A DNA stretch of 64,000 nt from Candidatus Nomurabacteria bacterium (lineage in GTDB: Bacteria > Patescibacteriota > Minisyncoccia > Phycocordibacterales > UBA918), in NCBI GenBank assembly GCA_020632135.1, contig JACKGC010000001.1, positions 517,124-581,123 of the forward strand. Reading direction: 5' to 3'. A program made the position numbers and the translations under genes. The notes under the pieces are model-generated. The model was not told where the DNA came from. It worked only from the letters and a program-made list of their open reading frames with translations, and searched no databases. Each line of letters starts with the position of its first letter. The first letter of the stretch is position 1. Positions 20 to 42,276 of the stretch are shown in pieces.

Positions 20-679
20 GTGGCCTTCGGGCTGTTGTGTGTCTCCGGACTGTCTGCAGCAGAGCCTGCAGGCGTCCGACCGAAACTGCCTTCCTCCGCG
101 GAGGCACCGCAAGGACTGTGGCTCAACATGATCCCCAAATCATACGGGGAAGATATCGCCACGGTGCGGAAGGTCTGTGAACAGAATGCAGCCATTAGCC
201 CAGTCGATGCACTGATGAAAGAGAAGTGCAACCGGCTCGTGAGGCAGTTGCAAGCTGGTGAGTGTGAAGTAGTGTGGGTGCCCGATGGTATCCGCCTCTC
301 ACTCTTAAACGGTTTGCAACACAGCAAACCACATACCTGGTTCAATATGGAGAAACAGACTGGCCGTTCCGATCGCGCACTACTGTGTGATCTGAGCGAG
401 GGGCTGTATAGCTACTGGTTTACCGGAGACGGCGCCAAGAGTTGTAATAACCTTGGGTTCGTTTTTCGACCACTGCCACCAACACCGCATGCGGAGTGGG
501 TGTGCAAGATGGTTCCGGTCAATACCAGTTGGCTCTCAACGCGACAGCCAGACTGGCTCGGTAGTATTACCAGCGAGAACTGCTGTTGTGGTATTGAATC
601 AGTGACACCTGAACTCGATCTTTCGTTTCGTAACACCTTGCAATCTACTGGCTACACCGAAGTGTGTGGCTGGGAATGA
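20..679 (+). CDS. Secreted cysteine-rich hypothetical protein (5' end uncertain)
   Basis: 219-codon ORF. N-terminus AFGLLCVSGLSAAEP resembles a signal peptide. The frame stays open back to nt 2, so the true start may lie upstream of the window. Many Cys, including CCCG near the C-terminus. No family recognised. Confidence 0.5.
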   Translation: MAFGLLCVSGLSAAEPAGVRPKLPSSAEAPQGLWLNMIPKSYGEDIATVRKVCEQNAAISPVDALMKEKCNRLVRQLQAGECEVVWVPDGIRLSLLNGLQHSKPHTWFNMEKQTGRSDRALLCDLSEGLYSYWFTGDGAKSCNNLGFVFRPLPPTPHAEWVCKMVPVNTSWLSTRQPDWLGSITSENCCCGIESVTPELDLSFRNTLQSTGYTEVCGWE

Positions 680-704
680 AACCGCTCTCTAGGAGGAACT
701 AATC

Positions 705-1376
705 ATGAATCGTCATGTCATCATGCGGTCTTCGATCGCAGTGGGAGCGCTCCTTCTGGGAGCGTGTCAAAGCACACCGATGCTGTCTGACAAAGAGTAT
801 TTGAGCATGAGCCCGGAGGCGCAAGAAGCGTATCGGAGTGAAATGCAACAGAACTTTTCAGCTCTGGAGCTGAAGAAGGCTGCCGAGTACGACGCTGGAT
901 TGCCGGTCCACTATGGGCTGCCGAATGACGGCTTCACCTTGCAGTGGAATAAGCGGCTGAATCTAGTGGCGCTCTGCAAAGGGCATACCACCGGCTTCAC
1001 TGGCATCGACTCATCGCTCTGTGCGGTGACGATGGCAGATGATCATGGGCAGATCGGTACGCAGCAGGTTGGGGGAGTTCTCAAACCAACGGTACTTCTC
1101 ACCAACACCTCCAGCCAGGAAGGCCTGGGCCGACTCTTCATTGAAGGCGGCTTTAAGGTCCTGGCGGCCGGAGTCAACGGTGCCTGGGCGGCGGAGATCC
1201 GTGCGGATAGCTGTAGTGACGGCAACTGTGCGGGGGATACCACCCTCATCAATGCCGGTGGTAACAGCTCAGCTGGGGCAGCTTCGGGCTCGTCGTCAAA
1301 TGCGGCGTCGCTGCTCGACTTCAAGGCTAGCGCGAGCTGTGGCAACGATCCCACCTGTGGTGGGGCTGCCTGGTAA
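705..1376 (+). CDS. Putative lipoprotein with Gly/Ser/Ala-rich C-terminal region
   Basis: Signal peptide plus lipobox-like LLGAC. AGGAGG at 691-696, 8 nt before the ATG. No family recognised. Confidence 0.6.
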   Translation: MNRHVIMRSSIAVGALLLGACQSTPMLSDKEYLSMSPEAQEAYRSEMQQNFSALELKKAAEYDAGLPVHYGLPNDGFTLQWNKRLNLVALCKGHTTGFTGIDSSLCAVTMADDHGQIGTQQVGGVLKPTVLLTNTSSQEGLGRLFIEGGFKVLAAGVNGAWAAEIRADSCSDGNCAGDTTLINAGGNSSAGAASGSSSNAASLLDFKASASCGNDPTCGGAAW

Positions 1377-1388
1377 GGCAAGTAGTAC

Positions 1389-1414
1389 ACCGAGGGTGCA
1401 ACTGCACCCTCGGT
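1389..1414 (+). terminator. Intercistronic GC-rich hairpin (possible terminator or attenuator, no U-tract)
   Basis: accgagggtgca..tgcaccctcggt forms near-perfect inverted arms between the stop at 1376 and the start at 1440. Confidence 0.3.
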
Positions 1415-1439
1415 CAACTTCAACAACAGGAGACTCTCA

Positions 1440-2831
1440 ATGAAGAAACGAGGACACCTTCTGATGCTCGTTGCGGTTGGGCTGCTTGCAGTATCGACCG
1501 TACATGCATCGTGTGAAATGCTATGGGGAAAAAATCCTACAGCGGCACAGAAACAGACGCTTCACCAGGTATTAGCTGGTACAACTGAGTATGTCGATGA
1601 CTACTCCGTCATGAGTATCGGTTCGGTAATGGTGCATAGTGCCAAGCAGCAATGCGCGGCACAGTTTGCAGCACTGCCGGAGTCACAACAGATACCACTC
1701 GGCTTTTTCAACCACGTGTTTACCAAGAACCGGCTTATTCGTGAGCCGATCGGTGAAAATGGGGTGGTGCCGGCGAAGTGGTTCATGCAACAGGTGGTCA
1801 CGCCCGGCATACGGCTACACTGGCCAAAGGCTGTTCGCACAGCTCCCGCAGTTGTTGATCCGGTGCAAGCCGCAATGGCTGACCTGCAACGACAACTCGA
1901 CCGCAAGGAGCAATTGGGTGCCAAGCGTGACAGGGAGCTGAAGCTGTCGTTGGAGAATATCCGGACAGCGCTCAATGACACGATGCAGTCGGTGACCGAA
2001 ACCTCACAACAAACGCAACAGGTGCAGGAGTTGTTGGGTAAGGTTGAGGCGGCGCAGCGGGAGCTGAGTGAAGGTAACTTCAGTGCAGCAGCCGAAGCGA
2101 AGCTGAGTGCGTTGTTTGGTGAGTATCTGGATGGTACTGGCATTGCGGGCCGAGCGGTTAACGCTGAACGGTTGGCAAAAGAAGCCAGTCAGAAAGCCTT
2201 GGACGCGCAAGGAAGTGTCAATCGACTCAACGGGTTGATCTGGAAGGTCGTGATCGGAGTAGCCGGTCTTGGTGTGATACTGCTGATCATTGGTTGGTAT
2301 CAGTCGAAGTTGACGTCTGATGTTGGTAAGCTTCTGAAACAGACCCTTAATGGGGATGGAACCGGTAAGGATCTTGGTGTGGTTAAAAAGCTCGAGGCAC
2401 TGACTGAAGCTCACGAGAATCTCGCAAAAGAGGTTCACGATCCTGAGTCAGGTCTATCGGCGACACGCGAGCTTGCTACTGAGGCACATAAACTCAGTCG
2501 TGAAGCGCAGCGTGCGTTGGCCGCCAATGTCGTTTTTGAAGAGCGGAACCAACCACCACAAGAGCTCTTGAAGCTCAATGTGGGTGAAGCACATGCGGTG
2601 TACTACCGTGGTCGTGACGAGAAAGGTAAGCCCTTTATGGTGCCGGTTTGGCATGTTGGAAACGGCAAGTTGCAACCCGACGTTCTCCGTCATCCGACCA
2701 GTAAGCTCTTGGTCGACCCAGTGAAGCCAGAAAACCTCCTGGATTCCATCGCTATGGCGGTGGTGAGTGGGCGGGTCAAGCAGGATGGCATGTCATCTCC
2801 GTCAAACGCGCGACCATTCAAGGCTGCGTAG
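1440..2831 (+). CDS. Secreted/membrane hypothetical protein with coiled-coil region and one internal TM helix
   Basis: 463-codon ORF. Signal peptide ending VHA|SC. AGGAG at 1428-1432. Long Q/E/A/L-rich heptad-like segment. Hydrophobic segment VVIGVAGLGVILLIIGWY. Confidence 0.6.
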   Translation: MKKRGHLLMLVAVGLLAVSTVHASCEMLWGKNPTAAQKQTLHQVLAGTTEYVDDYSVMSIGSVMVHSAKQQCAAQFAALPESQQIPLGFFNHVFTKNRLIREPIGENGVVPAKWFMQQVVTPGIRLHWPKAVRTAPAVVDPVQAAMADLQRQLDRKEQLGAKRDRELKLSLENIRTALNDTMQSVTETSQQTQQVQELLGKVEAAQRELSEGNFSAAAEAKLSALFGEYLDGTGIAGRAVNAERLAKEASQKALDAQGSVNRLNGLIWKVVIGVAGLGVILLIIGWYQSKLTSDVGKLLKQTLNGDGTGKDLGVVKKLEALTEAHENLAKEVHDPESGLSATRELATEAHKLSREAQRALAANVVFEERNQPPQELLKLNVGEAHAVYYRGRDEKGKPFMVPVWHVGNGKLQPDVLRHPTSKLLVDPVKPENLLDSIAMAVVSGRVKQDGMSSPSNARPFKAA

Positions 2832-2837
2832 CAGGGA

Positions 2838-2866
2838 GGTCGCCGGCCGCACAGCGGCCGGCGACC
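2838..2866 (+). terminator. 12-bp GC hairpin after the 1440-2831 gene (no U-tract)
   Basis: ggtcgccggccg (2838-2849), loop cacag, cggccggcgacc (2855-2866), starting 7 nt after the stop codon. Confidence 0.4.
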
Positions 2867-3186
2867 AAGGAGTGAGAGTTCCTTAAATATCTCTCAATGA
2901 ATGTTGTCATGACGTAAGATCATATCAGACCAAGTACGGCCCTTTCGCCTGAAACGTTACGTTGATCATGCGGCATGCATCATGCGAGAAGTTGCTATGG
3001 ACCCTACGTGACCGACTACGACCTAACCCGTCTGAAACGTTACCGAAAGTCCGCCATTGTACAACTGCTCAATTGATATCCTTTTCAGTACTAACTGTTC
3101 TTACATAAATACTCTGATCGAAGCGCCCTACGGCGATCTCAGAGGTATCTAGGCCCCGGCGGCATATCTGCGCTGGGGCTTTTTTG
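2867..3186 (+). ncRNA. Candidate terminator-bounded noncoding transcript (unknown class)
   Basis: About 320 nt with no credible ORF, bounded by the hairpin at 2838-2866 and a strong intrinsic terminator at 3153-3186. Contains a 12-nt direct repeat ctgaaacgttac at 2949-2960 and 3032-3043. Promoter not identified. Confidence 0.25.
3153..3186 (+). terminator. Rho-independent terminator not attached to any CDS
   Basis: Stem gccccggcg (3153-3161) / cgctggggc (3171-3179) with one G.T pair, 9-nt loop, then TTTTTT (3180-3185). Confidence 0.75.
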
Positions 3187-3230
3187 TATCCGCAGTGGTT
3201 GTGGAAGAGGGACTGTATACAAGGACAAGC

Positions 3231-3239
3231 TGGTATATA
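3231..3239 (+). promoter_or_regulatory. Extended -10-like box (TGgTATATA) for the pilin gene
   Basis: TG at 3231-3232 and TATATA at 3234-3239, 12 nt before the ATG at 3252. No SD in between. Confidence 0.4.
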
Positions 3240-3251
3240 CTTAATCTAATT

Positions 3252-3851
3252 ATGAAGAAAATCTTCGCGCAGGTGCAAGCTGGTTTTACGTTAATGGAAG
3301 TCATGATGGTAATCGCCATTATTGGCATCCTCACCGCTGTCACCCTTTCTTCACTTAACGACTCACAAGATGAGGCTAAGATCGCAAGCGCCGAAGCGCA
3401 GTTGCGTAGCATGCGCACCGCCATGGATGTGCTCTACAACGATTCAGGGAAGTACCCACATGGCTATGATAGATACTGCCCACCTGGTCCACGACCACCA
3501 GATACACCAAATGAGATCGACCTGTCAACCCCAGAAGCTGGTATCGTGGCCACCGACGGGAGTCATGATGGTTGGCGGGGGCCGTACATGCGTGAGGCGA
3601 TCGATCCCTGGGGCCATCCTTATTTTTTCGATGAAGACTACTTCTGCACGCCAGGTGCGCGAGGTTGTGATGGACTTGATTCAGATGCGAGCACCATCGT
3701 TTCCGCGTTAGTGTCGTGTGGTCTGGATGGAGATATTGGGACAGATAGTACTGCCAACAGTGGGCCAGGTCACACAGCAAAGCCCGATAACGGTGATGGA
3801 TGTGCTTATGATAATGACAACGTTGTGTACATACTTTGTCACTCAGAATAG
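3252..3851 (+). CDS. Type IV pilin / type II secretion pseudopilin (GspG-like)
   Basis: MKKIFAQVQAG|FTLMEVMMVIAIIGILTAV is a classic prepilin peptidase site (G/F, E+5) with a hydrophobic helix. DPWGHPYFF matches the GspG DPWGxPY motif. The ORF-track start at 3195 is upstream of the likely ATG at 3252. Confidence 0.8.
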   Translation: MKKIFAQVQAGFTLMEVMMVIAIIGILTAVTLSSLNDSQDEAKIASAEAQLRSMRTAMDVLYNDSGKYPHGYDRYCPPGPRPPDTPNEIDLSTPEAGIVATDGSHDGWRGPYMREAIDPWGHPYFFDEDYFCTPGARGCDGLDSDASTIVSALVSCGLDGDIGTDSTANSGPGHTAKPDNGDGCAYDNDNVVYILCHSE

Positions 3852-4252: not shown

Positions 4253-4345
4253 AAAAATGTTTTGCTTTGAGCGCGCTCTTCGGTGAGTCGCCGCTCGCAA
4301 AACGCAGATCTATGAAGCTTCGGCTTCTAGAACCTGTCTTAAATT

Positions 4346-5788
<1,443 letters not shown>

Positions 5789-5798
<10 letters not shown>

Positions 5799-5892
5799 TG
5801 GACACGTTGTCGTGTTGCGGTGACGCAGCACAATGACAGCTAATTGGTCGATCTGGTAGGTATCAATTGAGCCTATCAGGGAGCATAATACT
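5789..5892 (+). other. Structured 104-nt element after 16S helix 45 (insertion within the 16S 3' tail, or structured trailer)
   Basis: Hairpin 1: ccaattgg 5794-5801 / ctaattgg 5840-5847, ttgtc 5807-5811 / gacag 5835-5839, gtgttgcg 5812-5819 / cgcagcac 5824-5831, GTGA loop. Hairpin 2: tggtagg 5854-5860 / cctatca 5872-5878. Confidence 0.4.
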
Positions 5893-5902
5893 CATCTCCT
5901 AA
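5893..5902 (+). other. Anti-Shine-Dalgarno-like decamer CATCTCCTAA
   Basis: 8 of 10 identical to the E. coli 16S tail CACCTCCTTA. Complementary to the AGGAG/GGAGGTG motifs upstream of leadered genes in this window. Confidence 0.4.
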
Positions 5903-5926
5903 CCTGGTATTAGACTTTAGGGAAAG

Positions 5927-5953
5927 ACCTAACCAAAGGATAAGACAAAAGTG
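5927..5953 (+). other. 3' strand of the 16S precursor processing stem
   Basis: Complement of 4230-4252 (19 perfect bp plus 4 bp). Confidence 0.7.
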
Positions 5954-6001
5954 CACATAAACTCCACTGTCTATCTAGTATGAAAATTTCAATAGACACA
6001 T

Positions 6002-6035
6002 AAAAAGCGCGGCGCCTAAAGGCGCCGCGCTTTTT
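6002..6035. terminator. Bidirectional intrinsic terminator between 16S and the convergent pilin-like gene
   Basis: aaaaagcgcggcgcc (6002-6016), loop taaa, ggcgccgcgcttttt (6021-6035). A/T runs on both sides. Confidence 0.8.
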
Positions 6036-6043
6036 GGTTCTGG

Positions 6044-6475
6044 TTAACCCGTATTACCAGTGCCAGTACAGAACGGAGCGGTGGGATCAATATCACAAGG
6101 ATCGTCAGTCGTTGGCCCGCCTGGGAAACCTTGCATTTGAATATAATCAGATGTTGGTGCACTTTGACCTCCACCACCAATACTATTCACTAACATGTTT
6201 ACAATGCCCCAAAAAGTGATCATAAGGACAAATGCCATGATACCGTAGAGTGCGAGCGACTTAGCTTTCTCTTGGTCTTCCTGATTGCTGCCACCAAGTA
6301 CAAAGTAACGGATGACGTTGATAATGAAGAAGAGAAATGCCATTCCGATCAAGAATGGAATAAAGACCCCGCTTAAGAAGTTCGTAAAAGCTACGAGGAA
6401 GGTTTGGAAGTCTTGAGCGTGAGTAATGGCCGGGAAAAGGAGCAGGCTAGCGGCTAGGATGGTTGGTTGTTTCAT
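6044..6475 (-). CDS. TrbC/VirB2-like (CPR-type T4SS pilin family) small membrane protein
   Basis: Signal peptide MKQPTILAASLLLFPAITHA|QD. Two TM helices flank a charged loop YFVLGGSNQEDQEKAKSLALYG, the typical VirB2-like topology. Gly-rich C-terminus. Start moved from 6484 to 6475 because 6483-6488 is a TATAAT box. Confidence 0.55.
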   Translation of the reverse strand: MKQPTILAASLLLFPAITHAQDFQTFLVAFTNFLSGVFIPFLIGMAFLFFIINVIRYFVLGGSNQEDQEKAKSLALYGIMAFVLMITFWGIVNMLVNSIGGGGQSAPTSDYIQMQGFPGGPTTDDPCDIDPTAPFCTGTGNTG

Positions 6476-6482
6476 ACCCTGC

Positions 6483-6488
6483 ATTATA
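6483..6488 (-). promoter_or_regulatory. -10 box TATAAT, 7 nt upstream of ATG 6475 (leaderless arrangement)
   Basis: Minus-strand reading is TATAAT gcagggt ATG. Confidence 0.5.
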
Positions 6489-6547
6489 GCTTATTGCGCG
6501 GTCGCTGGATGGCCGTCGATACACATTGACTTTTGATCCTAGTATTT

Positions 6548-6553
6548 TATAAT
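6548..6553 (+). promoter_or_regulatory. -10 box TATAAT for the leadered gene at 6593 (SD AAGGAG at 6581-6586)
   Basis: tttTATAATgc, then a leader of about 30 nt containing AAGGAG 6 nt before the ATG at 6593. Confidence 0.45.
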
Positions 6554-6592
6554 GCTGGTCGCAAAAGTGTGTGTTCTTCCAAGGAGTGAGTG

Positions 6593-6874
6593 ATGTTATT
6601 GTATAAAAAGCAACGTGTACGACGTATGGTTATCCGCACGGCTCTGTTCATCGGGCTTTCCACTGTCTTGATCACGGCGGCTAAGACTGGCTTGCAGGCA
6701 TCGCCGATACCGCAGATCTATTATGATGGTGAGCGGTGTGTGGGCGTGGATACGGAGTTTGGTCCTCGACCGTGCAGTAGTGCACAGGGTGGCGCATATA
6801 CAAAAGTGCTCGCTGAGCCTGGGTTAACCTACACTGAGTTTGCCAAGCGCTGGCGCACGTTGTATCGTCCGTGA
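6593..6874 (+). CDS. Small membrane-anchored hypothetical protein
   Basis: 93 codons from ATG 6593. Basic N-terminus followed by a TM helix TALFIGLSTVLITAA. SD present. Confidence 0.45.
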   Translation: MLLYKKQRVRRMVIRTALFIGLSTVLITAAKTGLQASPIPQIYYDGERCVGVDTEFGPRPCSSAQGGAYTKVLAEPGLTYTEFAKRWRTLYRP

Positions 6875-6993
6875 CACCATCCCCGAAAGACCTGGGTCCC
6901 ACCCCAGGTCTTTTATTATGGGTCTTTCAAATCAGTAAAAAATCTGCTATAGTTCTGGCCACTTGCAAAGATTTAACTTATTAAATTCTTTGT

Positions 6994-7067
6994 CCGCGCT
7001 TAGCTCAGTTGGCTAGAGCATTCGACTGATACTCGAAAGGCCCTAGGTTCGAATCCTAGAGCGCGGA
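6994..7067 (+). tRNA. tRNA-Ile (anticodon GAT), no encoded CCA
   Basis: Cloverleaf by hand. Acceptor ccgcgct/agcgcgg. D arm gctc-agttggcta-gagc. Anticodon arm ttcga-ctGATac-tcgaa. Variable region aggcc. T arm ctagg-ttcgaat-cctag. Discriminator A. Ile identity pairs C4-G69, U12-A23 and C29-G41 are present. Unusual C1-G72. Confidence 0.9.
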
Positions 7068-7092
7068 CAAAGAATTTAAGTCTGCGCGAGCT

Positions 7093-7120
7093 GAAAAGTC
7101 TGCCCTGCGGCAGACTTTTC
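7093..7120. other. Perfect 12-bp hairpin between the tRNA and its partial copy
   Basis: gaaaagtctgcc (7093-7104), loop ctgc, ggcagacttttc (7109-7120). No U-tract on either side. Confidence 0.5.
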
Positions 7121-7161
7121 CCGTCCACGAAGTGGTCCGCCGTTGCGTAGCAGGCGGAAGG

Positions 7162-7225
7162 GTTGGCTAGAGCATTCGACTGATACTCGAAAGGCCCTAG
7201 GTTCGAATCCTAGAGCGCGGACAAA
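7162..7225 (+). repeat. Partial tRNA-Ile copy (3' 60 nt plus 4 nt of flank), att-scar-like direct repeat
   Basis: 7162-7225 is identical to 7008-7071 (64/64). It lacks the 5' acceptor strand and the 5' D-stem strand, so it is not a functional tRNA. Confidence 0.85.
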
Positions 7226-7238
7226 AAACGCAAAATAT

Positions 7239-7284
7239 CTCAAATGGTCTTGCGTAGTGCTCCCAGCACTACTCACTCGAAAGG
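7239..7284 (+). repeat. Structured repeat unit A (ggtcttgcg-hairpin-ctcac)
   Basis: ctcaaatggtcttgcg, tagtgct-ccc-agcacta, ctcactcgaaagg. Hairpin at 7255-7271. The 3' end shares the 11-mer actcgaaaggc with the tRNA (7031-7041). Confidence 0.5.
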
Positions 7285-7360
7285 CTGAAATGATCTGGGA
7301 GATCATTTCAGAACCTTTTGAGGTATTTCTGTAGCTTGCGAACAGAAATAGCCAAAAGGT
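7285..7360 (+). other. Two consecutive strong hairpins (unknown RNA or DNA structure)
   Basis: ctgaaatgatct 7285-7296 / agatcatttcag 7300-7311 (12 bp, loop ggg). accttttg 7313-7320 / caaaaggt 7353-7360, enclosing tatttctgt 7324-7332 / acagaaata 7342-7350. Confidence 0.5.
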
Positions 7361-7379
7361 GTACTGCTCCTGTAAGGAG

Positions 7380-7396
7380 GTAGGTTCGATTCTTAC
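7380..7396 (+). other. tRNA T-arm-like element without a tRNA body
   Basis: gtagg-ttcgatt-cttac. No matching acceptor or anticodon arm could be built around it. Confidence 0.3.
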
Positions 7397-7442
7397 AGAA
7401 TCTGTCCACTCATTGGATCTTTTTTCGCCAGCTCAAAAAGCT

Positions 7443-7488
7443 CTCAATGGGTCTTGCGCCAGTTCCCCGAACTGGCTCACCTCAAGGG
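7443..7488 (+). repeat. Structured repeat unit B (covaries with unit A)
   Basis: ctcaatgggtcttgcg, ccagttc-ccc-gaactgg, ctcacctcaaggg. Hairpin at 7459-7475. The flanks are conserved with unit A, while both stem strands changed in a compensatory way. Confidence 0.5.
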
Positions 7489-7536
7489 CACTTCCGAATT
7501 TATGGTCGAGTAAACTCTCCCTAAATTCTAGGGCGC

Positions 7537-7550
7537 TCCTAGAGCGTGGA
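7537..7550 (+). repeat. Decayed third copy of the tRNA-Ile 3' end
   Basis: tcctagagcgtgga versus the tRNA sequence tcctagagcgcgga at 7054-7067 (13/14). Confidence 0.45.
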
Positions 7551-7630
7551 AAAGGGTCTTTACTATGTAATTTTTGCATTCACTAGTGATATATGATTTA
7601 AATGATCATGGATCAGTTCAGGAAAAAGGT

Positions 7631-8041
7631 ATGAACGAAAAACATCACTTGTTACAAGAATTGGCTGCGGGGGCGATCGAGCGCCTTAAGCTGCTACCAC
7701 AACCAGTCGTGCGGGTGAGCGGACCGATATCGCCAAACGAATTGTATAGCTACGAAGAGAACCTGGCGCGGTTCATCAAGGCGCAACAGGCACTTCGAGA
7801 CAGAGGCTTTACCGTCTTTGATTATTTCGAAGATAATGGTGATGAGCAGGTGATCCAGGAGCACGGATTGCAAGACTTGGTGATGGAACAGTACCACCAA
7901 CCGATCCTGCAGTCTGGGTATCTGACCGCGGTCTATATGATGCCGCATTGGGAACTCTCAGGTGGGGCGAGACAAGAATATCAGCACTTTGTAGATAACG
8001 ATCTACCAATCAAGCATATTCCTGAGGAGTGGTTGCTGTGA
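7631..8041 (+). CDS. DUF4406-like protein (nucleoside 2-deoxyribosyltransferase-like fold)
   Basis: VRVSGPIS...N...F......L...GF.V near the N-terminus and VYMMPHWELSGGARQEYQH near the C-terminus match the pattern I recall for DUF4406. Start taken at ATG 7631 (MNEKHH) rather than ORF-track 7574. Confidence 0.5.
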   Translation: MNEKHHLLQELAAGAIERLKLLPQPVVRVSGPISPNELYSYEENLARFIKAQQALRDRGFTVFDYFEDNGDEQVIQEHGLQDLVMEQYHQPILQSGYLTAVYMMPHWELSGGARQEYQHFVDNDLPIKHIPEEWLL

Positions 8042-30852: not shown

Positions 30853-31869
30853 ATGAGACTGCTCATTATTACGCAAGCGGTCGACACTGAACACCCCATT
30901 CTTGGCTTTTTTCATCGTTGGATAGAAGAGTTTGCCAAACATTGTGAAAAGATACACGTGATCTGCTTAGAGGAAGGTAAGCATAGTCTGCCAGTCAACG
31001 TCACGATCCATTCACTTGGCAAAGAGGAGGGTAGAGATCGTATTGCATACCTCCACCGCTCCTATAAGCTCATTTGGCAGCTACGTCATGAGTATGACAG
31101 TGTGTTTGTGCACATGAATCAGATTTACGTGGTGCTTGGGGGATTGCTTTGGCGGCTGATGGGTAAAAAAATCGGTCTCTGGTATATGCACGGCCACGTG
31201 TCGATTTCGCTTCGTATAGCAGAGAAGCTGACGCATAAGATATTTACTGGCTCGCCTGAGAGCTTTCGGCTGAAAAGCGATAAGGTGCTGATCACTGGTC
31301 ATGGTATTGATACCATACGATTTGCTCCACAAACTTCACCGAAAGACATCGATCTCATTACTGTTGGTCGCATCACTGAATCAAAAAATCTGACCACACT
31401 CATAGATCTCCTTAAAGAAGTTCGTAAGACCAACCCAGTTTCATTGACCATCGTGGGTGGTGTCGTCACAGAAGGTGAGCGCGCTTACGAGACTAAGTTA
31501 AAAGCACGTATCGAGTCACTTGGTTTAGTAAAAGCAGTTCATTTTGCCGGTCGCATCCTGCAGGCAGAACTACCCACGACATTGAATCGCGCGAAGATTT
31601 TTGTCACGGTCGCTCAAAACGGTAGTTTAGACAAGGCAGTGCTAGAAGCCATGGCTTGTGGCTTACCGGTGGTCTCCATGGCGGAGGGAACACGATCGCT
31701 TTTTCTCAAAACCAGGCAAGTACGTACTAAGGATGATTTTGTAACTGAAGTGACAAACATACTGAAGTCAGACCCTCCGGCCTTTTTTGTTGCAAGTAAT
31801 GTAGCCAACGTAAAAGAGAACCACAGCCTTAACAATCTAATTGCACTTTTGGTGAAAGAGTCTTCTTAG
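30853..31869 (+). CDS. GT4-family glycosyltransferase
   Basis: MRLLIITQAVD. GRITESKN. NGSLDKAVLEAMACGLPVV. Confidence 0.75.
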   Translation: MRLLIITQAVDTEHPILGFFHRWIEEFAKHCEKIHVICLEEGKHSLPVNVTIHSLGKEEGRDRIAYLHRSYKLIWQLRHEYDSVFVHMNQIYVVLGGLLWRLMGKKIGLWYMHGHVSISLRIAEKLTHKIFTGSPESFRLKSDKVLITGHGIDTIRFAPQTSPKDIDLITVGRITESKNLTTLIDLLKEVRKTNPVSLTIVGGVVTEGERAYETKLKARIESLGLVKAVHFAGRILQAELPTTLNRAKIFVTVAQNGSLDKAVLEAMACGLPVVSMAEGTRSLFLKTRQVRTKDDFVTEVTNILKSDPPAFFVASNVANVKENHSLNNLIALLVKESS

Positions 31870-32549
31870 GTAGCAGTCGCTTCCTTGTAGAAATAGGCAT
31901 TTCCAAAGGGGTAGCGATAAATTGACGGGGCAATATTTTTACTCGAAAAGAAGTCATAGACAGCTTTTCTGCACCCGCCAAAATCGTAGTAATCATCAAC
32001 TACAATTATCCCTCCCTCTGACACTGAATCGTAGAGTGTGTTGAGCGCATCAAGGGTGGAGTCATATGTGTCTCCATCTAAACGTAAGATCGCTATTTGC
32101 CCAATTTCTTCTTTGTGCTTTGGGAGTGTCTCATTAAACCAACCCTTGATGATGTGTGGTTTTACTTTAAGCTTCTCTGCAATTTCTCGTGGGGTATCTT
32201 CTGACACGGCTATGTAACCAGTCTTTGTGTGCAAGGGTAGTCCTTTTGCATTCAGTAACTCAGCGTCATTTTCTGTCATCTCAGGCAAGCCTTCAAATGA
32301 ATCAAAGAGCCACACTTCTCGACCAAATTGGGCCATGTATGCACCAAGACCGCCTTTCCAACAACCAGTTTCCACGATTGCCCCGACGACTGCTTTAGAC
32401 CTGACCTGTTCAATGTGGTCTTGCATTTGATACACACCAGCTATTGTTTGCATGGTGTAACCGCGTATGCGCCTTATATTGATCAGCGAAAAAATCGCTT
32501 GTGGTTTTAGTGCTAAGAATTGAGCAAAATGTATAATTCGTCTAAACAT
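31866..32549 (-). CDS. TylF/macrocin-O-methyltransferase-family sugar O-methyltransferase
   Basis: GAIVETGCWKGG and LRLDGDTYDSTLDALNTLY..GGIIVVDDY are typical TylF-family motifs. Confidence 0.7.
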   Translation of the reverse strand: MFRRIIHFAQFLALKPQAIFSLINIRRIRGYTMQTIAGVYQMQDHIEQVRSKAVVGAIVETGCWKGGLGAYMAQFGREVWLFDSFEGLPEMTENDAELLNAKGLPLHTKTGYIAVSEDTPREIAEKLKVKPHIIKGWFNETLPKHKEEIGQIAILRLDGDTYDSTLDALNTLYDSVSEGGIIVVDDYYDFGGCRKAVYDFFSSKNIAPSIYRYPFGNAYFYKEATAT

Positions 32550-32611
32550 AGTAGGCTTTAGTATACTACAGAGATTATAGACCGCAGTCTTTTCAATCGT
32601 TTTACTATTCG

Positions 32612-33349
32612 CTATTTCTGCAAATAACCTTTCTGCATCATCACTAGGGTAATGTTGTGGTAAGCGTAAAAAGCATAGCCCTTATCGACCAAATATGTGT
32701 AAATCTTACTCCCTGTCATTTTTTCTCTAAATTCCCTGTCTTCAACGAGTATCACTTTCGGTCGGTACACTTTCCAGTCATTTGACTTGAGAACCTCAAG
32801 ATCCATACCTTCAACATCGACATCAAGGAGATCGATCTCAGTATTATCCAGATGTTCAGAAAGTATCTTTCTTAACGGAACACATTGGAGTTTTTGAGTA
32901 TCAACGAGACGGTTTCCATTCGCATTCTCTTTTTTGTTCGCATGTTCTCTATCGAAAGTATTAACCCCAGAGTGTGTGAAGTTATAGTAAGTCAACTCTT
33001 TTTCGTCTTCACTTATTCCTGTTAGCAAATTTAAATCAGCCGGACGATATTTATTGAAAAGTTTTATTGAGTTTTTGTTTGGATCAATATTTACGCCCCT
33101 CCAGCCTGCTTTGTACAATAGATAAGTATTGGATAAGTAATGTGGATGGAAAGCGCCAACGTCTACGTAGACGCCTTTGTGTGTGTCTTTAAAAATTCTC
33201 TGTAAAAGAATGTCCTCACCGTCGCCAGAGTAAGATAGAGATTTAAAATTTTGCAACGAAAACTTTTTTTTCAGATGGAGCAACGAATAAAAATACTTAT
33301 CCGGGATCATCTTGTGTAGTATGGACTTAGCCTTTTCCTTGGTGATCAT
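32612..33349 (-). CDS. FkbM-family methyltransferase
   Basis: VYVDVGAFHP, NIDPN, and DLLDVDVEGMDLEVL pattern. Confidence 0.65.
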   Translation of the reverse strand: MITKEKAKSILHKMIPDKYFYSLLHLKKKFSLQNFKSLSYSGDGEDILLQRIFKDTHKGVYVDVGAFHPHYLSNTYLLYKAGWRGVNIDPNKNSIKLFNKYRPADLNLLTGISEDEKELTYYNFTHSGVNTFDREHANKKENANGNRLVDTQKLQCVPLRKILSEHLDNTEIDLLDVDVEGMDLEVLKSNDWKVYRPKVILVEDREFREKMTGSKIYTYLVDKGYAFYAYHNITLVMMQKGYLQK

Positions 33350-34179
33350 TGTATTTTCTCTGAAAAAAGTGTCTGGTAGTAAAGAATATCCTGCTGCAGC
33401 TTTTCTTTCAAGAACACCCTCTCTGAATCGGTCTCTACACGATTCTTCCTTGCGGTTTTTGAGAGGAATGATTCCACAGTGTCACTTTTGATATTTATCT
33501 TCCTGAGGAAGTCTATGATTTTCTTGCCCGTCTCGCTTTTGTTTAAGAACAAATAGATACGGGTTATCGTCTTAAATAGTGGGTTCGCTCGCCAAGCGCT
33601 CGTATTATATTTGGTGTGTAGAAAATTTGGGGTAAAAGTTGCTATATCCAAAAAATCACAGACCTTATCAATTACATTCTGGGGCTTGTTGCAGATCTCT
33701 TTATAATCAATGAATAAGACTTGTTCCTTCGGGAATACTTCAGCATAGTTTCCTGTCCACTTAGTATAGAGACTATACTCAATCAATTCAGGAAACTCTA
33801 CAACTGCACTCTCGACCAGCACACTCTCTTTGAGATGGCCGTTATTTTTAATGTGGCGAAAGTGAGATAGGGTACGTTCGACTGGGTCTCGGAGAAGAAT
33901 GATGATTTTTGCGTCAGGGAAAGAGGCTTTGATCCTTTGGGGAGCGTCTTTGTCATACAAGTATAGAGGTGAGGCTTCAAAAAAGACGGGCTTGTGGTTG
34001 CAGTCATTATATAAATGATAATAGTCGCTAGTGTCCGAAGTGTCTTTCGTAAAGAAATTGGTTTCTTTTCCTCTGGCTCCGCACACCTCAGGATGCTCTT
34101 CCAGGCACTTAAAGAGCCAGCTGGTCCCAGCTTTTTGGGAACCAACACATATAGCGATTTTTTTTGCTGAGATTTTCAT
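33346..34179 (-). CDS. PAPS-dependent sulfotransferase
   Basis: 5'-PSB loop GSQKAGTSWL and 3'-PB motif LLRDPVERTLSHFRH. 4-nt overlap with the FkbM-like gene. Confidence 0.8.
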   Translation of the reverse strand: MKISAKKIAICVGSQKAGTSWLFKCLEEHPEVCGARGKETNFFTKDTSDTSDYYHLYNDCNHKPVFFEASPLYLYDKDAPQRIKASFPDAKIIILLRDPVERTLSHFRHIKNNGHLKESVLVESAVVEFPELIEYSLYTKWTGNYAEVFPKEQVLFIDYKEICNKPQNVIDKVCDFLDIATFTPNFLHTKYNTSAWRANPLFKTITRIYLFLNKSETGKKIIDFLRKINIKSDTVESFLSKTARKNRVETDSERVFLKEKLQQDILYYQTLFSEKIQ

Positions 34180-34254
34180 TTAATTATCTTGTGTTCATTA
34201 TAACTAAAGAATTGGTGTATACTAACTTAAATTTATTGAATAGACTAAACATCT

Positions 34255-35943
34255 ATGGGGTATTTAATTGAAATTTCTTCCGATAACACAGTAAAAATAG
34301 AGACTGATTTTGAATATCTCAGAAAAGGTTCCTGTACTTTGTATTACCAAGGTCTTAATAAAAATGTTGCGCAGAATGTAATCAAAGCATATGTTGCAGA
34401 TAATCTAACATCCTATTTAAACGAAGGAGATTTTGATAACTTTGTTTTCTTCATCAAAAATGAAGAAAAAGGTCGTTTCGCAATCTACAATGACCATTTC
34501 GGTAGTAAAGAAATTTTTTATAAAAAGGACAAGGATCGTAACTGTGTGTTTGTGACTGATAGTGTGTTTACTTTACCGAAAGAAATGCTCAACATATCTA
34601 CGCAGAATCTATATGAATTTTTTGTGTTTCAGAATGTATTACCCCCCGATACTGTTTATGATGGAATCAGTTGTTTGCCGGGAGGTAGTTATCTGTCGAT
34701 CTGTGAAGATAAAATTGAAATAGTTGAGTATTGGGATATGGATAGTTTGCTAAACGGTAAACTTGAATCATACCCTGAGCTAATTAAGCTTGGTGATGAG
34801 GCTTTAAAAGAATCACTGACAAAGAATTGTGGAGATAGTGTTGCCGTAGCTTTATCAGGAGGAGTTGATTCAGGTGGTTTGTTAGGAATGTGTGTTAGTA
34901 AGCTTAAAATTAAGCCAATTACAATATCAGTTGGGGGCAAGGGACCACAGACGATTGACTTACTGAGTGCGCGAAAATCTGCTAAATATCATAATGTTGA
35001 ACAGCATGAATTATATCCTTCTTTCGATGACATGAAAGATATGTGGGGGAATTCAGTTGGTTTATCACAACCAGTACAGGCAGCAGCATCTTTTGCGTAT
35101 TCACTGATTAATAAGAAGGCTGAGCAAGCACAGGCTGACACTGTCGTGTATGGTTTTGGAGCTGAGATGGTATTGGGGAATGGTATGAAATTATCAAAGA
35201 TTGCTAATCAACTTCGTTATGAAAAGTATATACCTGATCCTATACTAAGGGTGCTCTACAAAATTATTGGGAGCATGGTTGCGGGCTCAGAAAACAGGAG
35301 GCGTTTTTTGCTGGCAAGCAATGATTGGGTGAGTCGTTTTATGATAGTGCGCAGCGCATATTATCCTTGGACTAAGAAGTACATGACAAAAGAAAGTTCT
35401 GCTTTCATGAATCATGTGAGGGATAAGGTTGCTGTGCAATTCAGTGATAACTTAAGCATATATGATGCTTTAGTAAGATTGTATGTAAAGAGTTGGGTAA
35501 ATTACATGCAATATAGAGACATGAACGCAATTGCTAGGCGGTACAAAGTAAAACCAGTGATCCCTTTTGATTCCTTACGCCTTGTAAAGGTATTTTTCAG
35601 GTTGCCAGTTAAACATAGGAAAAGAAATAATTGGAATAAACAGTTGATTCGCGATATTTTTAAACCTTATACCCCTGAACACTTATATGACAATATTGCT
35701 CGTTCAATCGGTGTTCCGTATACGGAGATTTTTGGCGCACATTTTGAAGAGGTTTTGCATTACGTTGAAGGCTCTACCTTGTTAAGCTCATTATACGATT
35801 TTAACCTTCTTAAAAAGCATTTAAAACATGAACCAGAACCAGGTTTCTTTTTGATGTTTTTATTTGGTGTGGCAGTTTGGTATGATGCGAATTTTTACCC
35901 AGAAAGAGAATTAGAGTTTCAAAGGCTGTTTGATAGCAACTAA
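34255..35943 (+). CDS. Asparagine synthase (AsnB)-like amidoligase lacking the N-terminal Cys nucleophile
   Basis: PP-loop VAVALSGGVDSGG. NDHFGSKEIFYK resembles RD..G.KPLYY. The N-terminus is MGYLIE rather than MCG. Confidence 0.7.
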   Translation: MGYLIEISSDNTVKIETDFEYLRKGSCTLYYQGLNKNVAQNVIKAYVADNLTSYLNEGDFDNFVFFIKNEEKGRFAIYNDHFGSKEIFYKKDKDRNCVFVTDSVFTLPKEMLNISTQNLYEFFVFQNVLPPDTVYDGISCLPGGSYLSICEDKIEIVEYWDMDSLLNGKLESYPELIKLGDEALKESLTKNCGDSVAVALSGGVDSGGLLGMCVSKLKIKPITISVGGKGPQTIDLLSARKSAKYHNVEQHELYPSFDDMKDMWGNSVGLSQPVQAAASFAYSLINKKAEQAQADTVVYGFGAEMVLGNGMKLSKIANQLRYEKYIPDPILRVLYKIIGSMVAGSENRRRFLLASNDWVSRFMIVRSAYYPWTKKYMTKESSAFMNHVRDKVAVQFSDNLSIYDALVRLYVKSWVNYMQYRDMNAIARRYKVKPVIPFDSLRLVKVFFRLPVKHRKRNNWNKQLIRDIFKPYTPEHLYDNIARSIGVPYTEIFGAHFEEVLHYVEGSTLLSSLYDFNLLKKHLKHEPEPGFFLMFLFGVAVWYDANFYPERELEFQRLFDSN

Positions 35944-35971
35944 CTGCGCTTTAAAAGATTACATTTTCAGA

Positions 35972-36889: not shown

Positions 36890-36919
36890 AAAGAGGACTA
36901 TATGTCGTTTCTGTGACTT

Positions 36920-38008: not shown

Positions 38009-38137
38009 TAGATAGTTTGGAAGATTGTTACAAAACGCCTGTCTATTTCGTTAAACATACTATAAAAGCTTTGAAAGTAAAATATTTTATAATTAGCATT
38101 TTACTCCTAAGAGATGAGATTGTATGATAATTAAACT

Positions 38138-39214: not shown

Positions 39215-39225
39215 TCAGAAGAGGA

Positions 39226-40467: not shown

Positions 40468-40568
40468 CGTATAAAATGACGATTCATTATACCTCGTACA
40501 ACAAAACCTTTATTTAATTAGTTTTGTTATACTGTGTGCGCTTCTTATGTGTTCACCATCCGAGATCC

Positions 40569-42206: not shown

Positions 42207-42276
42207 TCAAGTTATCAACGTGTGGATAGCGTGGTTGTGGTGATTAAAGAGTTAACATGCTTAGTATTATTTATTA

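Follow-up and report, generated by a model that had tools for sequence, protein, structure and literature searches.

The noncoding tract that follows the tRNA-Ile gene in the window (the whole 64-kb stretch of DNA analyzed here) is probably the local form of a composite noncoding locus found clade-wide in the Paceibacteria, in which a functional tRNA-Ile is accompanied by a tRNA-derived copy split by hairpin modules. In the model that we favor, these modules interrupt the copy in the D-loop, the anticodon loop, the junction of the variable region and the T-stem, and the T-loop. Two of them, M and E, are new predicted structured families defined by covariance models. The first half of the tract runs from the live tRNA through M, tRNA positions 15 to 75, the right half of a tRNA-bearing E, and tRNA positions 38 to 48; the second half consists of an antisense E, the 5' half of a T-arm, a sense E, the GC/H4 module, and a T-arm/acceptor remnant (Table 1).

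Table 1. Features of the tRNA-Ile tract, in window coordinates
Feature	Coordinates	Strand	Basis or detail
Predicted promoter of the noncoding unit (-35 TTCAAA, extended -10 TGcTATAGT)	6926..6953	+	consensus scan
Perfect 20-bp leader/trailer helix enclosing tRNA-Ile	6981..7079	+	arms 6981-7000 / 7060-7079
Functional tRNA-Ile (anticodon GAU)	6994..7068	+	ARAGORN; Rfam tRNA, 72.2 bits
Module M	7080..7161	+	covariance model R1, 96.1 bits over 7080-7173
M1, variant tRNA 5' acceptor and D strand	7080-7094
M hairpin 1	7093-7120
M small hairpin CCAC-GAA-GTGG	7125-7135
M hairpin 2	7136-7158
M terminal AGG	7159-7161
Perfect copy, tRNA-Ile positions 15-75 plus flank	7162..7225	+	exact repeat
Right half of tRNA-bearing E (unit A): trailer strand of long helix, CTTGCG, U hairpin	7226..7274	+
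U hairpin of unit A, stem	7254-7261 / 7265-7272
tRNA fragment, positions 38-48, ACTCGAAAGGC	7275..7285	+	tRNA comparison
Antisense E; contains a 21-mer that is inverted in L004	7285..7381	-	model R2, 53.6 bits, E=2.5e-12
T-arm 5' half remnant of broken tRNA copy, GTAGGTTCGA	7380..7389	+	tRNA comparison
Sense E lodged in T-loop (unit B is its U hairpin); left hairpin TTC-TTACA-GAA (7390-7400), central helix, U hairpin	7387..7480	+	model R2, 77.4 bits, E=3e-19
GC/H4 module: AAGGGCACTTCC, then predicted hairpin GAATTTA 7496-7502 / TAAATTC 7523-7529	7481..7527	+
T-arm (CTAGG-GCGCT-CCTAG) and 3' acceptor strand remnant of broken copy	7528..7553	+	15/17 match to tRNA 3' end; hairpin readable in sequence

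The genome sampled belongs to the Paceibacteria (CPR) and was compared with 80 species-level genomes of relatives and with metagenome loci; the stretches examined per genome were centered on murD and covered 2 to 21 kb each (typically ~10 kb). Loci of relatives are labeled Lnnn, L004 being a scaffold from the same species as the window. In 66 of the 80 related genomes, murD is preceded by tRNA-Ile(GAU), and 35 of these 66 tRNA-murD loci contain partial copies of the genome's own tRNA-Ile. A comparison across relatives found the hairpin units and the partial copies present and conserved in many related genomes. The hosts form a broad group of Paceibacteria species with MurD proteins 54 to 83% identical to that of the window, and across this group the structured noncoding locus, ~500 to 700 nt long, occupies one syntenic place. 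In the tRNA-bearing loci of relatives, 3' fragments of the tRNA lie downstream of tRNA-Ile and 5' fragments lie upstream, nearly always on the strand of the tRNA itself (two antisense pieces were found). The order of the tandem parts differs among relatives, with M-T in 36 loci and T-M in 23. We did not find a locus of this kind described in the literature on CPR tRNA introns, MITEs, and tRNA-linked RNAs; the relevant literature was limited to archaeal tRNA-intron mobility and CPR rRNA introns. Above threshold, Rfam reported only tRNA and SSU rRNA, with the remaining matches at chance level, and no known RNA family was matched by the M and E regions at E-values up to 10.

The acceptor stem of the live tRNA-Ile is lengthened by 13 bp through pairing of its leader and trailer. 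This helix is clade-wide and covarying, and leader/trailer complementarity of at least 8 bp occurs in 31 of 51 loci, compared with 6.6% of mismatched leader/trailer controls. In most related loci, a TGnTATAGT motif lies 25 to 45 nt upstream of the first element, whether tRNA or M; the predicted promoter in the window would be the single promoter of the whole noncoding unit. The tract is probably cotranscribed with tRNA-Ile.

The 94 bp that the preliminary description took as a spacer between the intact gene and its perfect copy is not a mere gap. It holds module M, which is conserved and shared by distant species. Model R1 gives 85 matches (44 in genome loci and 41 in metagenome loci), all of them beside tRNA-Ile and on the same strand, and the match at 7080-7173 is the only one in the 64-kb window. 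M is found at the same syntenic place in ~36 of the 80 species-level genomes and in 31 metagenome contigs, and 16 of its 20 stem pairs have compensatory changes among 31 aligned copies. Since ~30 of the 66 tRNA-bearing loci have no M, the module is dispensable. The acceptor strand of M1 tracks species-specific changes in the tRNA acceptor in L021, L024, and L032; M1 lacks U8 and is mismatched at pairs 7:66 and 13:22. Three other readings of parts of M were rejected. The resemblance to T-box, hammerhead, and other ribozymes was seen by eye and had no Rfam match up to E=10; hairpin 1 as an intrinsic terminator is contradicted by an empty terminator scan of 6850-7700 and by stems that are AT-only in many relatives; and for the hairpin-2 loop, pairing to ACGCAAAA, a motif conserved in the trailer, is without mismatch in the window and L007 but contains mismatches in L004, L057, and L011.

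The perfect duplicate reported earlier was confirmed: 7162-7225 equals 7008-7071 exactly, and the repeat stretches to 67 nt at 66/67 (7008-7074 / 7162-7228). A 24-mer of the repeat occurs twice in the window, with 0 occurrences expected by chance, and Rfam calls a partial tRNA at 7163-7214 (34.6 bits). A copy of positions 15 to 75 also follows M in L009, L085 (twice), L104, and L118. The statement that the copy is without 5' acceptor and D strands needs amending, in that variant strands exist 68 nt upstream (GTCTGCGCGAGCTGA, 7080-7094), parted from the 7162-7225 copy by the three-hairpin insert. M1 is predicted, in the minimum-free-energy fold, to pair with the acceptor strand at the 3' side of 7162-7222. 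M and 7162-7225 form a second tRNA-Ile-like gene with a 67-nt insert (7095-7161) in its D-loop.

Further tRNA-derived pieces lie downstream. The place of the short fragment at 7275-7285 is held by positions 38 to 75, at 97 to 100% identity, in L019, L021, L024, L101, L138, L152, and L157. The T-arm-like piece noticed at 7380-7396 was partly recognized correctly: 7374-7398 matches the tRNA (76% over 25 nt), but its "cttac" (7392-7396) opens the next E element and is not a T-stem strand. The decayed copy of the tRNA 3' end is real, with 7537-7553 matching at 15/17. Other tRNA-Ile loci with the GC/H4 motif are those of L007, L012, L019, L022, L035, L040, L060, and L152. All of the hairpins listed in the preliminary description are present (7093-7120, 7285-7311, 7317-7357, and units A and B), and the fold z-scores are -3.4 for M plus the copy and -5.5 for 7226-7560.

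It is extremely improbable that the repeat arose in assembly or is a neutral tandem duplication, recent and local, that only the window genome has. De Bruijn contigs do break at the repeat, and Logan contigs break exactly at its ends, as a true repeat predicts. The order tRNA-M-partial copy recurs in L009, L085, L104, L118, L022, L023, and L069, which are independent assemblies of other species; with so many genomes assembled separately and sharing this order, the repeat is not an artefact. M in the window is moreover a bona fide member of its family, at 96 bits. The scaffold L004 lacks the 154-nt unit, but it has the other, equally widespread order, which accounts for the difference, and its downstream sequence is 100% identical. 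Among other rearranged loci, L085 has two perfect 151-nt tandem units, and the copy in L118 is uninterrupted where that in L156 has two E elements, while their M modules are 96% identical.

The tRNA fragments carry 70 of 74 derived lineage-specific positions of the live tRNA, a count biased upward by the use of each genome's own tRNA as the BLAST query for fragments. These shared substitutions indicate gene conversion. Conversion on 15- to 25-nt tracts between E elements is mechanistically awkward, and the fragments could in reality be kept identical by selection acting directly on a tRNA-like fold.

Units A and B proved to be the 3' (U) hairpins of E, a ~90-nt element of three hairpins with a conserved CTTACAG loop and CTTGCG and CTCAC flanks. 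A covariance-model search recovered the E family across relatives: model R2 gives 55 + 30 matches, those in the window being 7387-7480 (+) and 7285-7381 (-), with no E in the remaining 63 kb. The two long hairpins noted at 7285-7360 are present as parts of the antisense E that spans 7285-7381. The half element at 7226-7274 is homologous to intact tRNA-bearing E elements in L004, L057, L007, L024, and L019, and once its tRNA is taken out, the L004 element can be aligned with a solo E over the full length. The covariation first seen between units A and B can be generalized, as seven of nine U-hairpin stem pairs have compensatory changes in 23 homologous copies from many genomes; in the family alignment, the figure is 11 of 13. 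Six other loci have an ortholog of the antisense E at the same position, and among the seven copies 15 of 32 pairs show compensatory changes; orthologous copies at the kinase locus are likewise separated by compensatory changes. Compensatory changes between orthologous copies show that the structure is under selection where the copies sit. The selection on structure that had been read from units A and B was a correct deduction.

E occurs in both orientations, and most copies lie within loops of the broken tRNA copy. E inserts at positions 36/38 of the anticodon loop and 57/61 of the T-loop, and it interrupts the T-loop in L050, L028, and L156 just where it does in the window. The tRNA-loop flanks are contiguous or short of 1 to 3 nt. 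A few copies lie elsewhere: one site is the 16S leader, and murD and a kinase gene each have E at the 5' end. The protein-gene insertions come with exact 33- to 41-nt duplications of the gene's 5' end and a coupled upstream open reading frame (ORF); these exact duplications are unaccounted for by the model we favor. In the alignment, E has no terminal inverted repeats, its ends being two different hairpins (left and U), and no short target duplication of fixed length was found at the tRNA-loop or protein-gene sites. On the sense strand, G-U pairs outnumber A-C mismatches by ~16 to 3, which hints at a strand-specific structure (single-stranded DNA [ssDNA] or RNA).

These properties have led us to consider whether E elements, perhaps with an HUH/Y1-type transposase, and tRNA-carrying E elements are active selfish mini-transposons that home into tRNA-Ile loops, so that the resident tRNA was destroyed and replaced by the element's copy and the tract is a functionless junkyard. 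We think this quite unlikely. E is indeed a dispersed family that inserts in hairpin loops in both orientations, its presence or absence differs between close relatives, and in one version the live tRNA caps the central helix of an E that itself lies in the anticodon loop of an older copy; the lack of terminal inverted repeats and target duplication and the strand bias in G-U pairs fit as well. Set against this, near-identical copies at different sites within a genome are missing (maximum identity, 0.77). E copies are no closer within a genome (0.63) than between genomes (0.62), so mobility is historical at best. Compensatory changes accompany the conservation of orthologous copies, unannotated ORF lists for E-rich loci showed no transposase nearby, and the other 63 kb of the window are free of E.

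Integrases that target tRNA genes have as their classic signature direct repeats of tRNA 3' segments whose start lies in the anticodon loop or T-loop (e.g., Williams 2002), and the preliminary description read the copies as attL/attR footprints of integrase-mediated insertion at a hotspot. With repeated integration and excision and later deletion of the interiors, the partial 3' copies would be att scars. The tRNA 3' segment is directly repeated here (64 to 67 nt, 7008-7074 / 7162-7228), in keeping with that signature, as are 3' fragments downstream and 5' fragments upstream. On the other side, the window has no integrase or cargo between the tRNA and its copies, and no integrase was found by eye in ORF translations from the 12 related loci in which the tRNA and murD are farthest apart. 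The copies are only 87 to 250 nt apart (87 nt of noncoding DNA in the window), and the intervening DNA is itself a conserved, covarying structured module common to distant species. No viral attP was found: module M and the tRNA 3' half have 0 matches in 2.9 million viral contigs, and for E, 70 pattern matches in viruses were all due to chance, with 0 covariance-model matches. The arrangement is also clade-wide and syntenic, not sporadic or strain specific. We regard this origin as very unlikely; it is largely refuted, and we infer that integrases play no part.

Of the other suggestions made at the outset, a degraded integrated element is apt insofar as the tract is built of small inserted modules, and a set of tRNA-linked structured RNAs fits well. 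The phage flavor attributed to the downstream DUF4406-like gene (7631-8041) was not supported: the gene is borderline DUF4406 or nucleoside 2-deoxyribosyltransferase-like, its only PHROG match is a weak one to nucleoside deoxyribosyltransferase, and homologous ORFs are found at this position in relatives.

Another reading is that the broken copy is a functional expanded tRNA-like RNA. M and the tRNA segments would fold to a tRNA-Ile-shaped core with M and E domains emerging from its loops; RNase P and RNase Z would process this core, the CCA-adding enzyme and possibly IleRS would recognize it, and selection, not only conversion, would keep the segments identical to the live tRNA. Breakpoints lie mostly in cloverleaf loops and fragments are colinear, yet the 3' acceptor fragment is absent in L007, L011, L020, and L094, positions 26 to 32 are missing in L022 and L023, and the D/anticodon segment is decayed in L007, L021, and L084. 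M1 follows the acceptor stem of each species' own tRNA and, in the minimum-free-energy fold, has the 3' acceptor strand as its partner, but its missing U8 and its mismatches at 7:66 and 13:22 speak against a functional core. Short fragments between E elements are 100% identical while E diverges to ~65%, and module structures are selected where they sit; E is nonetheless found in both orientations and outside the tRNA locus, and no known RNA family matches. On balance, we consider such an RNA unlikely.

Removal of the inserts does not restore a complete canonical tRNA, as E junctions are short of 1 to 3 nt and many loci are without whole segments. The outer copy was also considered as a spliced tRNA, possibly with a GAC (valine) anticodon, in which C replaces U36; the T-loop junction and the missing segments leave no tRNA. 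A group I or other intron had no Rfam match at E-values up to 10. In relatives, a T-arm followed by AAAATATAGTCGCA-like motifs suggested tmRNA or two-piece tmRNA, for which ARAGORN gave 0 calls in 87 sequences and Rfam gave none; a TATAGT -10 box or hairpin loop is the simpler reading of the AAAATATAGTCGCA-like motif.

In the composite locus as we favor it, the modules would have been inserted long ago into a tRNA copy that was redundant. The 64-nt perfect repeat with its 154-nt period may be the product of exchange between the broken copy and the live tRNA, by either gene conversion or unequal crossing-over, and the order seen in the window could derive from a two-tRNA ancestor in which the D-arm after M recombined with the tRNA inside an E element. 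The hairpins would act at the RNA level, either in processing or stability of the precursor or as independent tRNA-scaffolded RNAs. It is further conceivable, although we think it unlikely, that a tRNA-bearing E replaced the resident tRNA-Ile gene and that the displaced copy was kept as a tRNA-scaffolded RNA. Such an E would hold the only tRNA-Ile(GAU) gene of the cell at the tip of its central helix and would have been installed in the anticodon loop of an older copy; the displaced copy would be a tRNA-shaped scaffold displaying selected M and E RNA domains and processed from the same precursor. If true, this would amount to gene replacement by a tRNA-bearing mini-element and to a natural class of tRNA-scaffolded noncoding RNA, whose function could be, for example, the maturation or regulation of tRNA-Ile or a part in host-dependent physiology.

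Genomes of CPR/Patescibacteria are ~1 Mb long, tightly packed, and thought to be repeat poor. A large structured locus in such a streamlined genome is unexpected, as are helices under selection joined to tRNA parts that evolve in concert with an essential tRNA. For annotation, partial tRNA copies beside a tRNA gene are not automatically integrase scars, and the protein-gene E insertions, with their gene-start duplication and coupled upstream ORF, show an essential gene surviving insertion.

Several known systems resemble the locus in part. REP/BIME, MITE-like, and Rickettsia palindromic elements are, like E, families of short (~90 nt) noncoding hairpin repeats, and the Rickettsia elements have copies inside protein and RNA genes (PMC10969869). 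As in REP/BIME, E copies of both orientations are clustered and their stems are kept by compensatory changes. E differs from all of these in its three distinct hairpins with conserved loops (CTTACAG) and flanks (CTTGCG and CTCAC), in having one variant that carries a live tRNA gene, and in the exact 33- to 41-nt 5'-end duplications brought by its protein-gene insertions; in contrast to REP/BIME, its copies are concentrated at one locus and their number looks low in the murD-centered stretches, and E is not known to have a RAYT or IS partner. The MITE hallmarks of terminal inverted repeats, a fixed target duplication, and near-identical dispersed copies are lacking, the last being judged from identity within loci (median 0.63, maximum 0.77) and from the window, which has no copy outside the nest. 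The attL/attR fragments share with the locus tRNA 3' direct repeats that lie downstream and start in the anticodon loop or T-loop. Here, there is no integrase or cargo in the window, the ~90-nt spacers are themselves modules with conserved structure, synteny of the arrangement extends across the clade, and the fragments start in the D-loop as well and are colinear pieces of one interrupted copy.

The multi-intron, split, and permuted tRNA genes of archaea such as Thermoproteales and Nanoarchaeum, with their mobile introns (Fujishima et al. 2009, 2010, as cited in PMC10714607), likewise have short structured inserts at several noncanonical positions, the D- and T-loops among them; these inserts form families and have apparently moved between positions. 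The host here is a bacterium that is not known to have a splicing endonuclease, many species have incomplete "exons," and the copy adjoins an intact intronless tRNA. Splicing to a functional tRNA is therefore unlikely.

The CPR is a lineage known for rRNA insertions (Tsurumaki 2022, as cited in PMC10714607). Bacterial 23S/16S intervening sequences (IVS) and CPR rRNA insertions are similar ~100-nt hairpin inserts in loops of structural RNAs, sporadic among relatives, whereas the host here is a redundant tRNA copy and not an rRNA; the 16S rRNA in the window is of normal length. Finally, tmRNA, YrlA, and viral tRNA-like structures also combine a tRNA-derived frame of acceptor and T-arm with large structured inserts in place of the other arms, but the locus differs from tmRNA in having no G3:U70 pair, no tag reading frame, and no ARAGORN or Rfam call.

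The tRNA-Ile(GAU) gene of the window is followed by a noncoding tract in which 7162-7228 repeats 7008-7074 at 66 of 67 positions, with 64 bases exact. A 24-mer of this repeat occurs twice, against a chance expectation of none, and Rfam independently matches a partial tRNA within the second copy (copy 2). The tRNA 3' duplicate reported in the preliminary description is thus real, and all of the hairpins that it placed in the tract were recovered by a repeat finder. In other assemblies of the same organism, contigs end exactly at the repeat ends, which is what a true repeat would produce. An ENA scaffold (L004) matches the sequence 3' of the copy at 100% identity and carries one full tRNA, with different sequence 5' of it. 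Pairing of leader and trailer lengthens the acceptor stem by 13 bp in the window; over 51 loci the median is 8 uninterrupted bp. This helix is found clade-wide, covaries between species (window, L007-L157), and may be a processing or terminator helix.

Coordinates of features (window positions unless a related locus, L-number, is named)
Feature	Location	Remark
16S rRNA gene	4339-5798	no linked 23S; none follows in the 64-kb window
T4SS-pilin-like gene	6044-6484	minus strand
tRNA-Ile leader/trailer helix	6981-7000 / 7060-7079	perfect, 20 bp
tRNA-Ile(GAU)	6994-7068	ARAGORN and Rfam
Partial tRNA	7163-7214	independent Rfam match
Antisense E	7285-7381	54 bits
Weaker tRNA-like piece	7374-7398	76% over 25 nt
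Sense E (unit B)	7387-7480	77 bits
Weaker tRNA-like piece	7537-7553	15/17
E in P-loop region of nucleotide-kinase-like gene	L071 2567-2780; L062 3038-3250; L067 547-886	arrangement conserved in three species

The neighbors of the tract are the 16S rRNA gene, pilin-like genes, murD, and murC. The T4SS-pilin-like gene and a small ORF lie between 16S and tRNA-Ile (4339-6994), and in the relatives examined a pilin-like gene (and 16S where visible) is also found upstream of tRNA-Ile. Elsewhere in the window, a region of low GC content (31866-43377; 35-45% versus about 52%) is probably a variable island for surface polysaccharides. Its genes serve glycan modification and include those for TylF and FkbM methyltransferases, a sulfotransferase, a fused ATP sulfurylase/APS kinase, a GT47-like glycosyltransferase, and a flippase. 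One ORF, 2093 codons long, occupies 54644-60925.

Comparison with the sequences of relatives reveals that the apparent spacer between the two tRNA copies (7080-7161) is homologous across species. This module, M, begins with a variant tRNA 5' end in which GTCCGCGCGAGCTGA replaces GTCCGCGCTTAGCTCA, followed by a hairpin of 9-12 bp, a small hairpin, a third hairpin with the conserved loop GATGTTTACGA (a GTTG...GCA variant in the window), and AGG, after which the tRNA resumes at the D-loop (GTTGGCTAGAGC). When 31 copies are aligned, 16 of the 20 pairs in the three hairpins show compensatory changes. A covariance model (R1) matches 44 copies at genome loci and 41 in contigs from a metagenome pattern scan, every one of them adjoining tRNA-Ile on the same strand, with only one M in the 64-kb window; no Rfam family matches M. 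Its acceptor-like strand tracks species-specific acceptor changes of the resident tRNA and, in the predicted fold of the window, pairs with the 3' acceptor strand of copy 2. Since M is homologous, covarying, and acceptor-matching, copy 2 is no truncated att scar; it is the body of another tRNA-Ile-like gene, whose D-loop holds a structured insert of 67 nt (7095-7161). Three distantly related species (L007, L021, and L084) share one diverged sequence (GCTTTCTCCTGACTTCTTACAGAAGC) in the D/anticodon fragment that follows M; this part is therefore conserved in a form other than tRNA and is not in free decay.

The partial copies had been read initially as attL/attR scars of integrase-mediated insertion. 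However, the supposed spacer is the conserved M, no integrase-like ORF was evident in translations of the window or of the tRNA-murD interval of the 12 loci with the widest gaps, and viral contigs contained no M, no E (the second module family), and no tRNA 3' half. Nor does the phage association of the DUF4406-like neighbor hold up: its Pfam match is borderline, its PHROG match (to nucleoside deoxyribosyltransferase) is weak, and relatives have homologous ORFs at this position. Readings as a tmRNA, T-box, ribozyme, or intron were tried and dropped.

Members of family E are 75-100 nt long and consist of a left hairpin with loop CTTACAG, a central helix of variable length, CTTGCG, a "U" hairpin, and CTCAC. 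The two 46-nt units (A, 7239-7284; B, 7443-7488) described earlier as covarying are the 3' hairpin of E, with compensatory changes at 7 of 9 pairs among 23 U hairpins; in the left hairpin and central helix, 11 of 13 pairs covary. The E covariance model (R2) matches 55 copies at genome loci and 30 at metagenome loci. The "two long hairpins" noted at 7285-7360 are present and are parts of one antisense E, and this E also accounts for a 21-mer found inverted in L004. Unit A forms the right end of a special version of E, in which the leader/trailer helix of a complete tRNA-Ile serves as the central helix. This tRNA-bearing E is intact at five loci (L004, L057, L007, L019, and L024) and, minus its tRNA, can be aligned with solo E copies over their whole length. 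Within the broken tRNA copy, solo E copies are inserted in the anticodon loop (36/38) and T-loop (57/61) and antisense E at the variable-loop/T-stem junction, with no target duplication at these insertions.

Comparison across relatives, suggested in the preliminary description as a check, shows that the arrangement recurs. Among 80 loci encoding MurD relatives (54-83% identity), all from Patescibacteria/Paceibacteria MAGs, tRNA-Ile(GAU) lies upstream of murD in 66, in either orientation, and 35 of these 66 have partial copies of the genome's own tRNA nearby; thus, the phenomenon is clade-wide and not a peculiarity of the window. At these 35 loci, fragments of the 3' part always lie downstream and those of the 5' part upstream, with starts clustering at tRNA positions 14/15 (D-loop), 33 or 37/38 (anticodon loop), and 52-62 (T-loop). 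One locus (L085) has two perfect tandem units of 151 nt. Module maps of 60 loci begin with a single promoter-like TGnTATAGT box, after which the parts come in either of two orders: tRNA, M, and fragments (T-M; 23 loci, including the window) or M, fragment 15-36, tRNA-bearing E, and fragment 38-75 (M-T; 36 loci, including L004). The full order in the window is tRNA, M, tRNA 15-75, the right half of a tRNA-bearing E, tRNA 38-48, antisense E, T-arm 5' half, sense E, a GC/H4 module, and a T-arm plus acceptor remnant. It would have arisen in a two-tRNA ancestor, by recombination of the D-arm after M with the tRNA carried by an E. In about a quarter of species, tRNA-Ile and the entire module nest are inverted relative to murD (L021, L024, L025, L028, L030-L032, L035, L038, L054, L056-L058, L061, L062, and L080), and L103 has a pair of full tRNA-Ile genes that are oppositely oriented and separated by about 550 nt.

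E also occurs in few copies outside the tRNA locus, in the 16S leader (L067 and L074), a P-loop kinase gene (L071, L062, and L067), and murD (L050). In the kinase gene, antisense E is flanked by an exact repeat, 41 or 33 nt long, of the 5' end of the gene. An upstream ORF with 56-57 codons runs through this E, and its stop overlaps the true start codon (ATGA). In L050 (3540-3900), a diverged murD 5' fragment of 22 codons precedes two tandem E copies and an intact murD; this locus has 10 R2 matches in 15 kb, nine of them within about 3.2 kb (668-3840). From the kinase and murD cases, a structured insert plus a duplicated gene end, with one copy left intact, is a general rule. E is accompanied by a hairpin motif, GTACAGAAAATAT...TTATTTTCCAGCAA, 350-870 nt upstream of 16S genes (L067 4215-4478 and L074 5333-5412). 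The motif, which recurs downstream of tRNA-Ile in L007, L009, L012, L015, and L085, might be an rRNA/tRNA-operon leader signal.

Across the clade, tRNA-Ile is nearly invariant. Where it departs from the consensus within a detected fragment, the fragment agrees at 70 of 74 positions, a figure biased upward by detection through similarity to the genome's own tRNA. Despite this bias, such sharing, together with the perfect tandem units (L085 and the window), points to concerted evolution of the tRNA pieces via gene conversion or unequal crossing-over. The modules between them change much faster (about 65% identity between L028 and L156), with their helices kept: seven orthologous copies of the window's antisense E have compensatory changes at 15 of 32 pairs, and the kinase-locus copies likewise show them. 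A smaller rival explanation is that E is a still-active selfish element. Presence does vary, with an intact copy in L118 and two E copies at that site in L156, beside M modules that are 96% identical. However, E copies are not more similar within genomes (median identity 0.63) than between them (0.62), and copies at orthologous sites are 0.85-1.0 identical, so that the insertions are old and vertically inherited, with structure under selection in place. Locus order also differs within one species: L004 (885 nt, another sample; 1-370 versus window 6864-7470) has a different M variant, followed by a decayed fragment and a tRNA-bearing E. This is a within-species structural polymorphism or strain-level replacement.

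We regard the anatomy, the two covarying families, the synteny, the concerted evolution, and the lack of integrase or phage signals as established. The modules would have originated by ancient insertion into a redundant tRNA copy, with conversion or unequal crossover generating the perfect repeat; the tract is probably cotranscribed from a predicted promoter (6926-6953), and its hairpins may act at the RNA level. The predicted structure is strong (z = -3.4 and -5.5), which is compatible with an RNA-level role and is no proof of it; neither is the clade-wide leader/trailer helix. In the main rival explanation, the broken copy would itself function as a tRNA-scaffolded RNA.

Literature text searches returned no description of modules like M or E in CPR bacteria. 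The closest known systems are REP/BIME-like and Rickettsia-type palindromic repeats, integrase-derived tRNA fragments, archaeal multi-intron tRNAs with mobile introns, and rRNA intervening sequences, but none shares the full feature set of this locus. We place it among the small structured insertion modules. Its unusual features are an element that carries a tRNA, a D-loop module that is conserved, evolution in concert with an essential tRNA, and duplicated gene starts.
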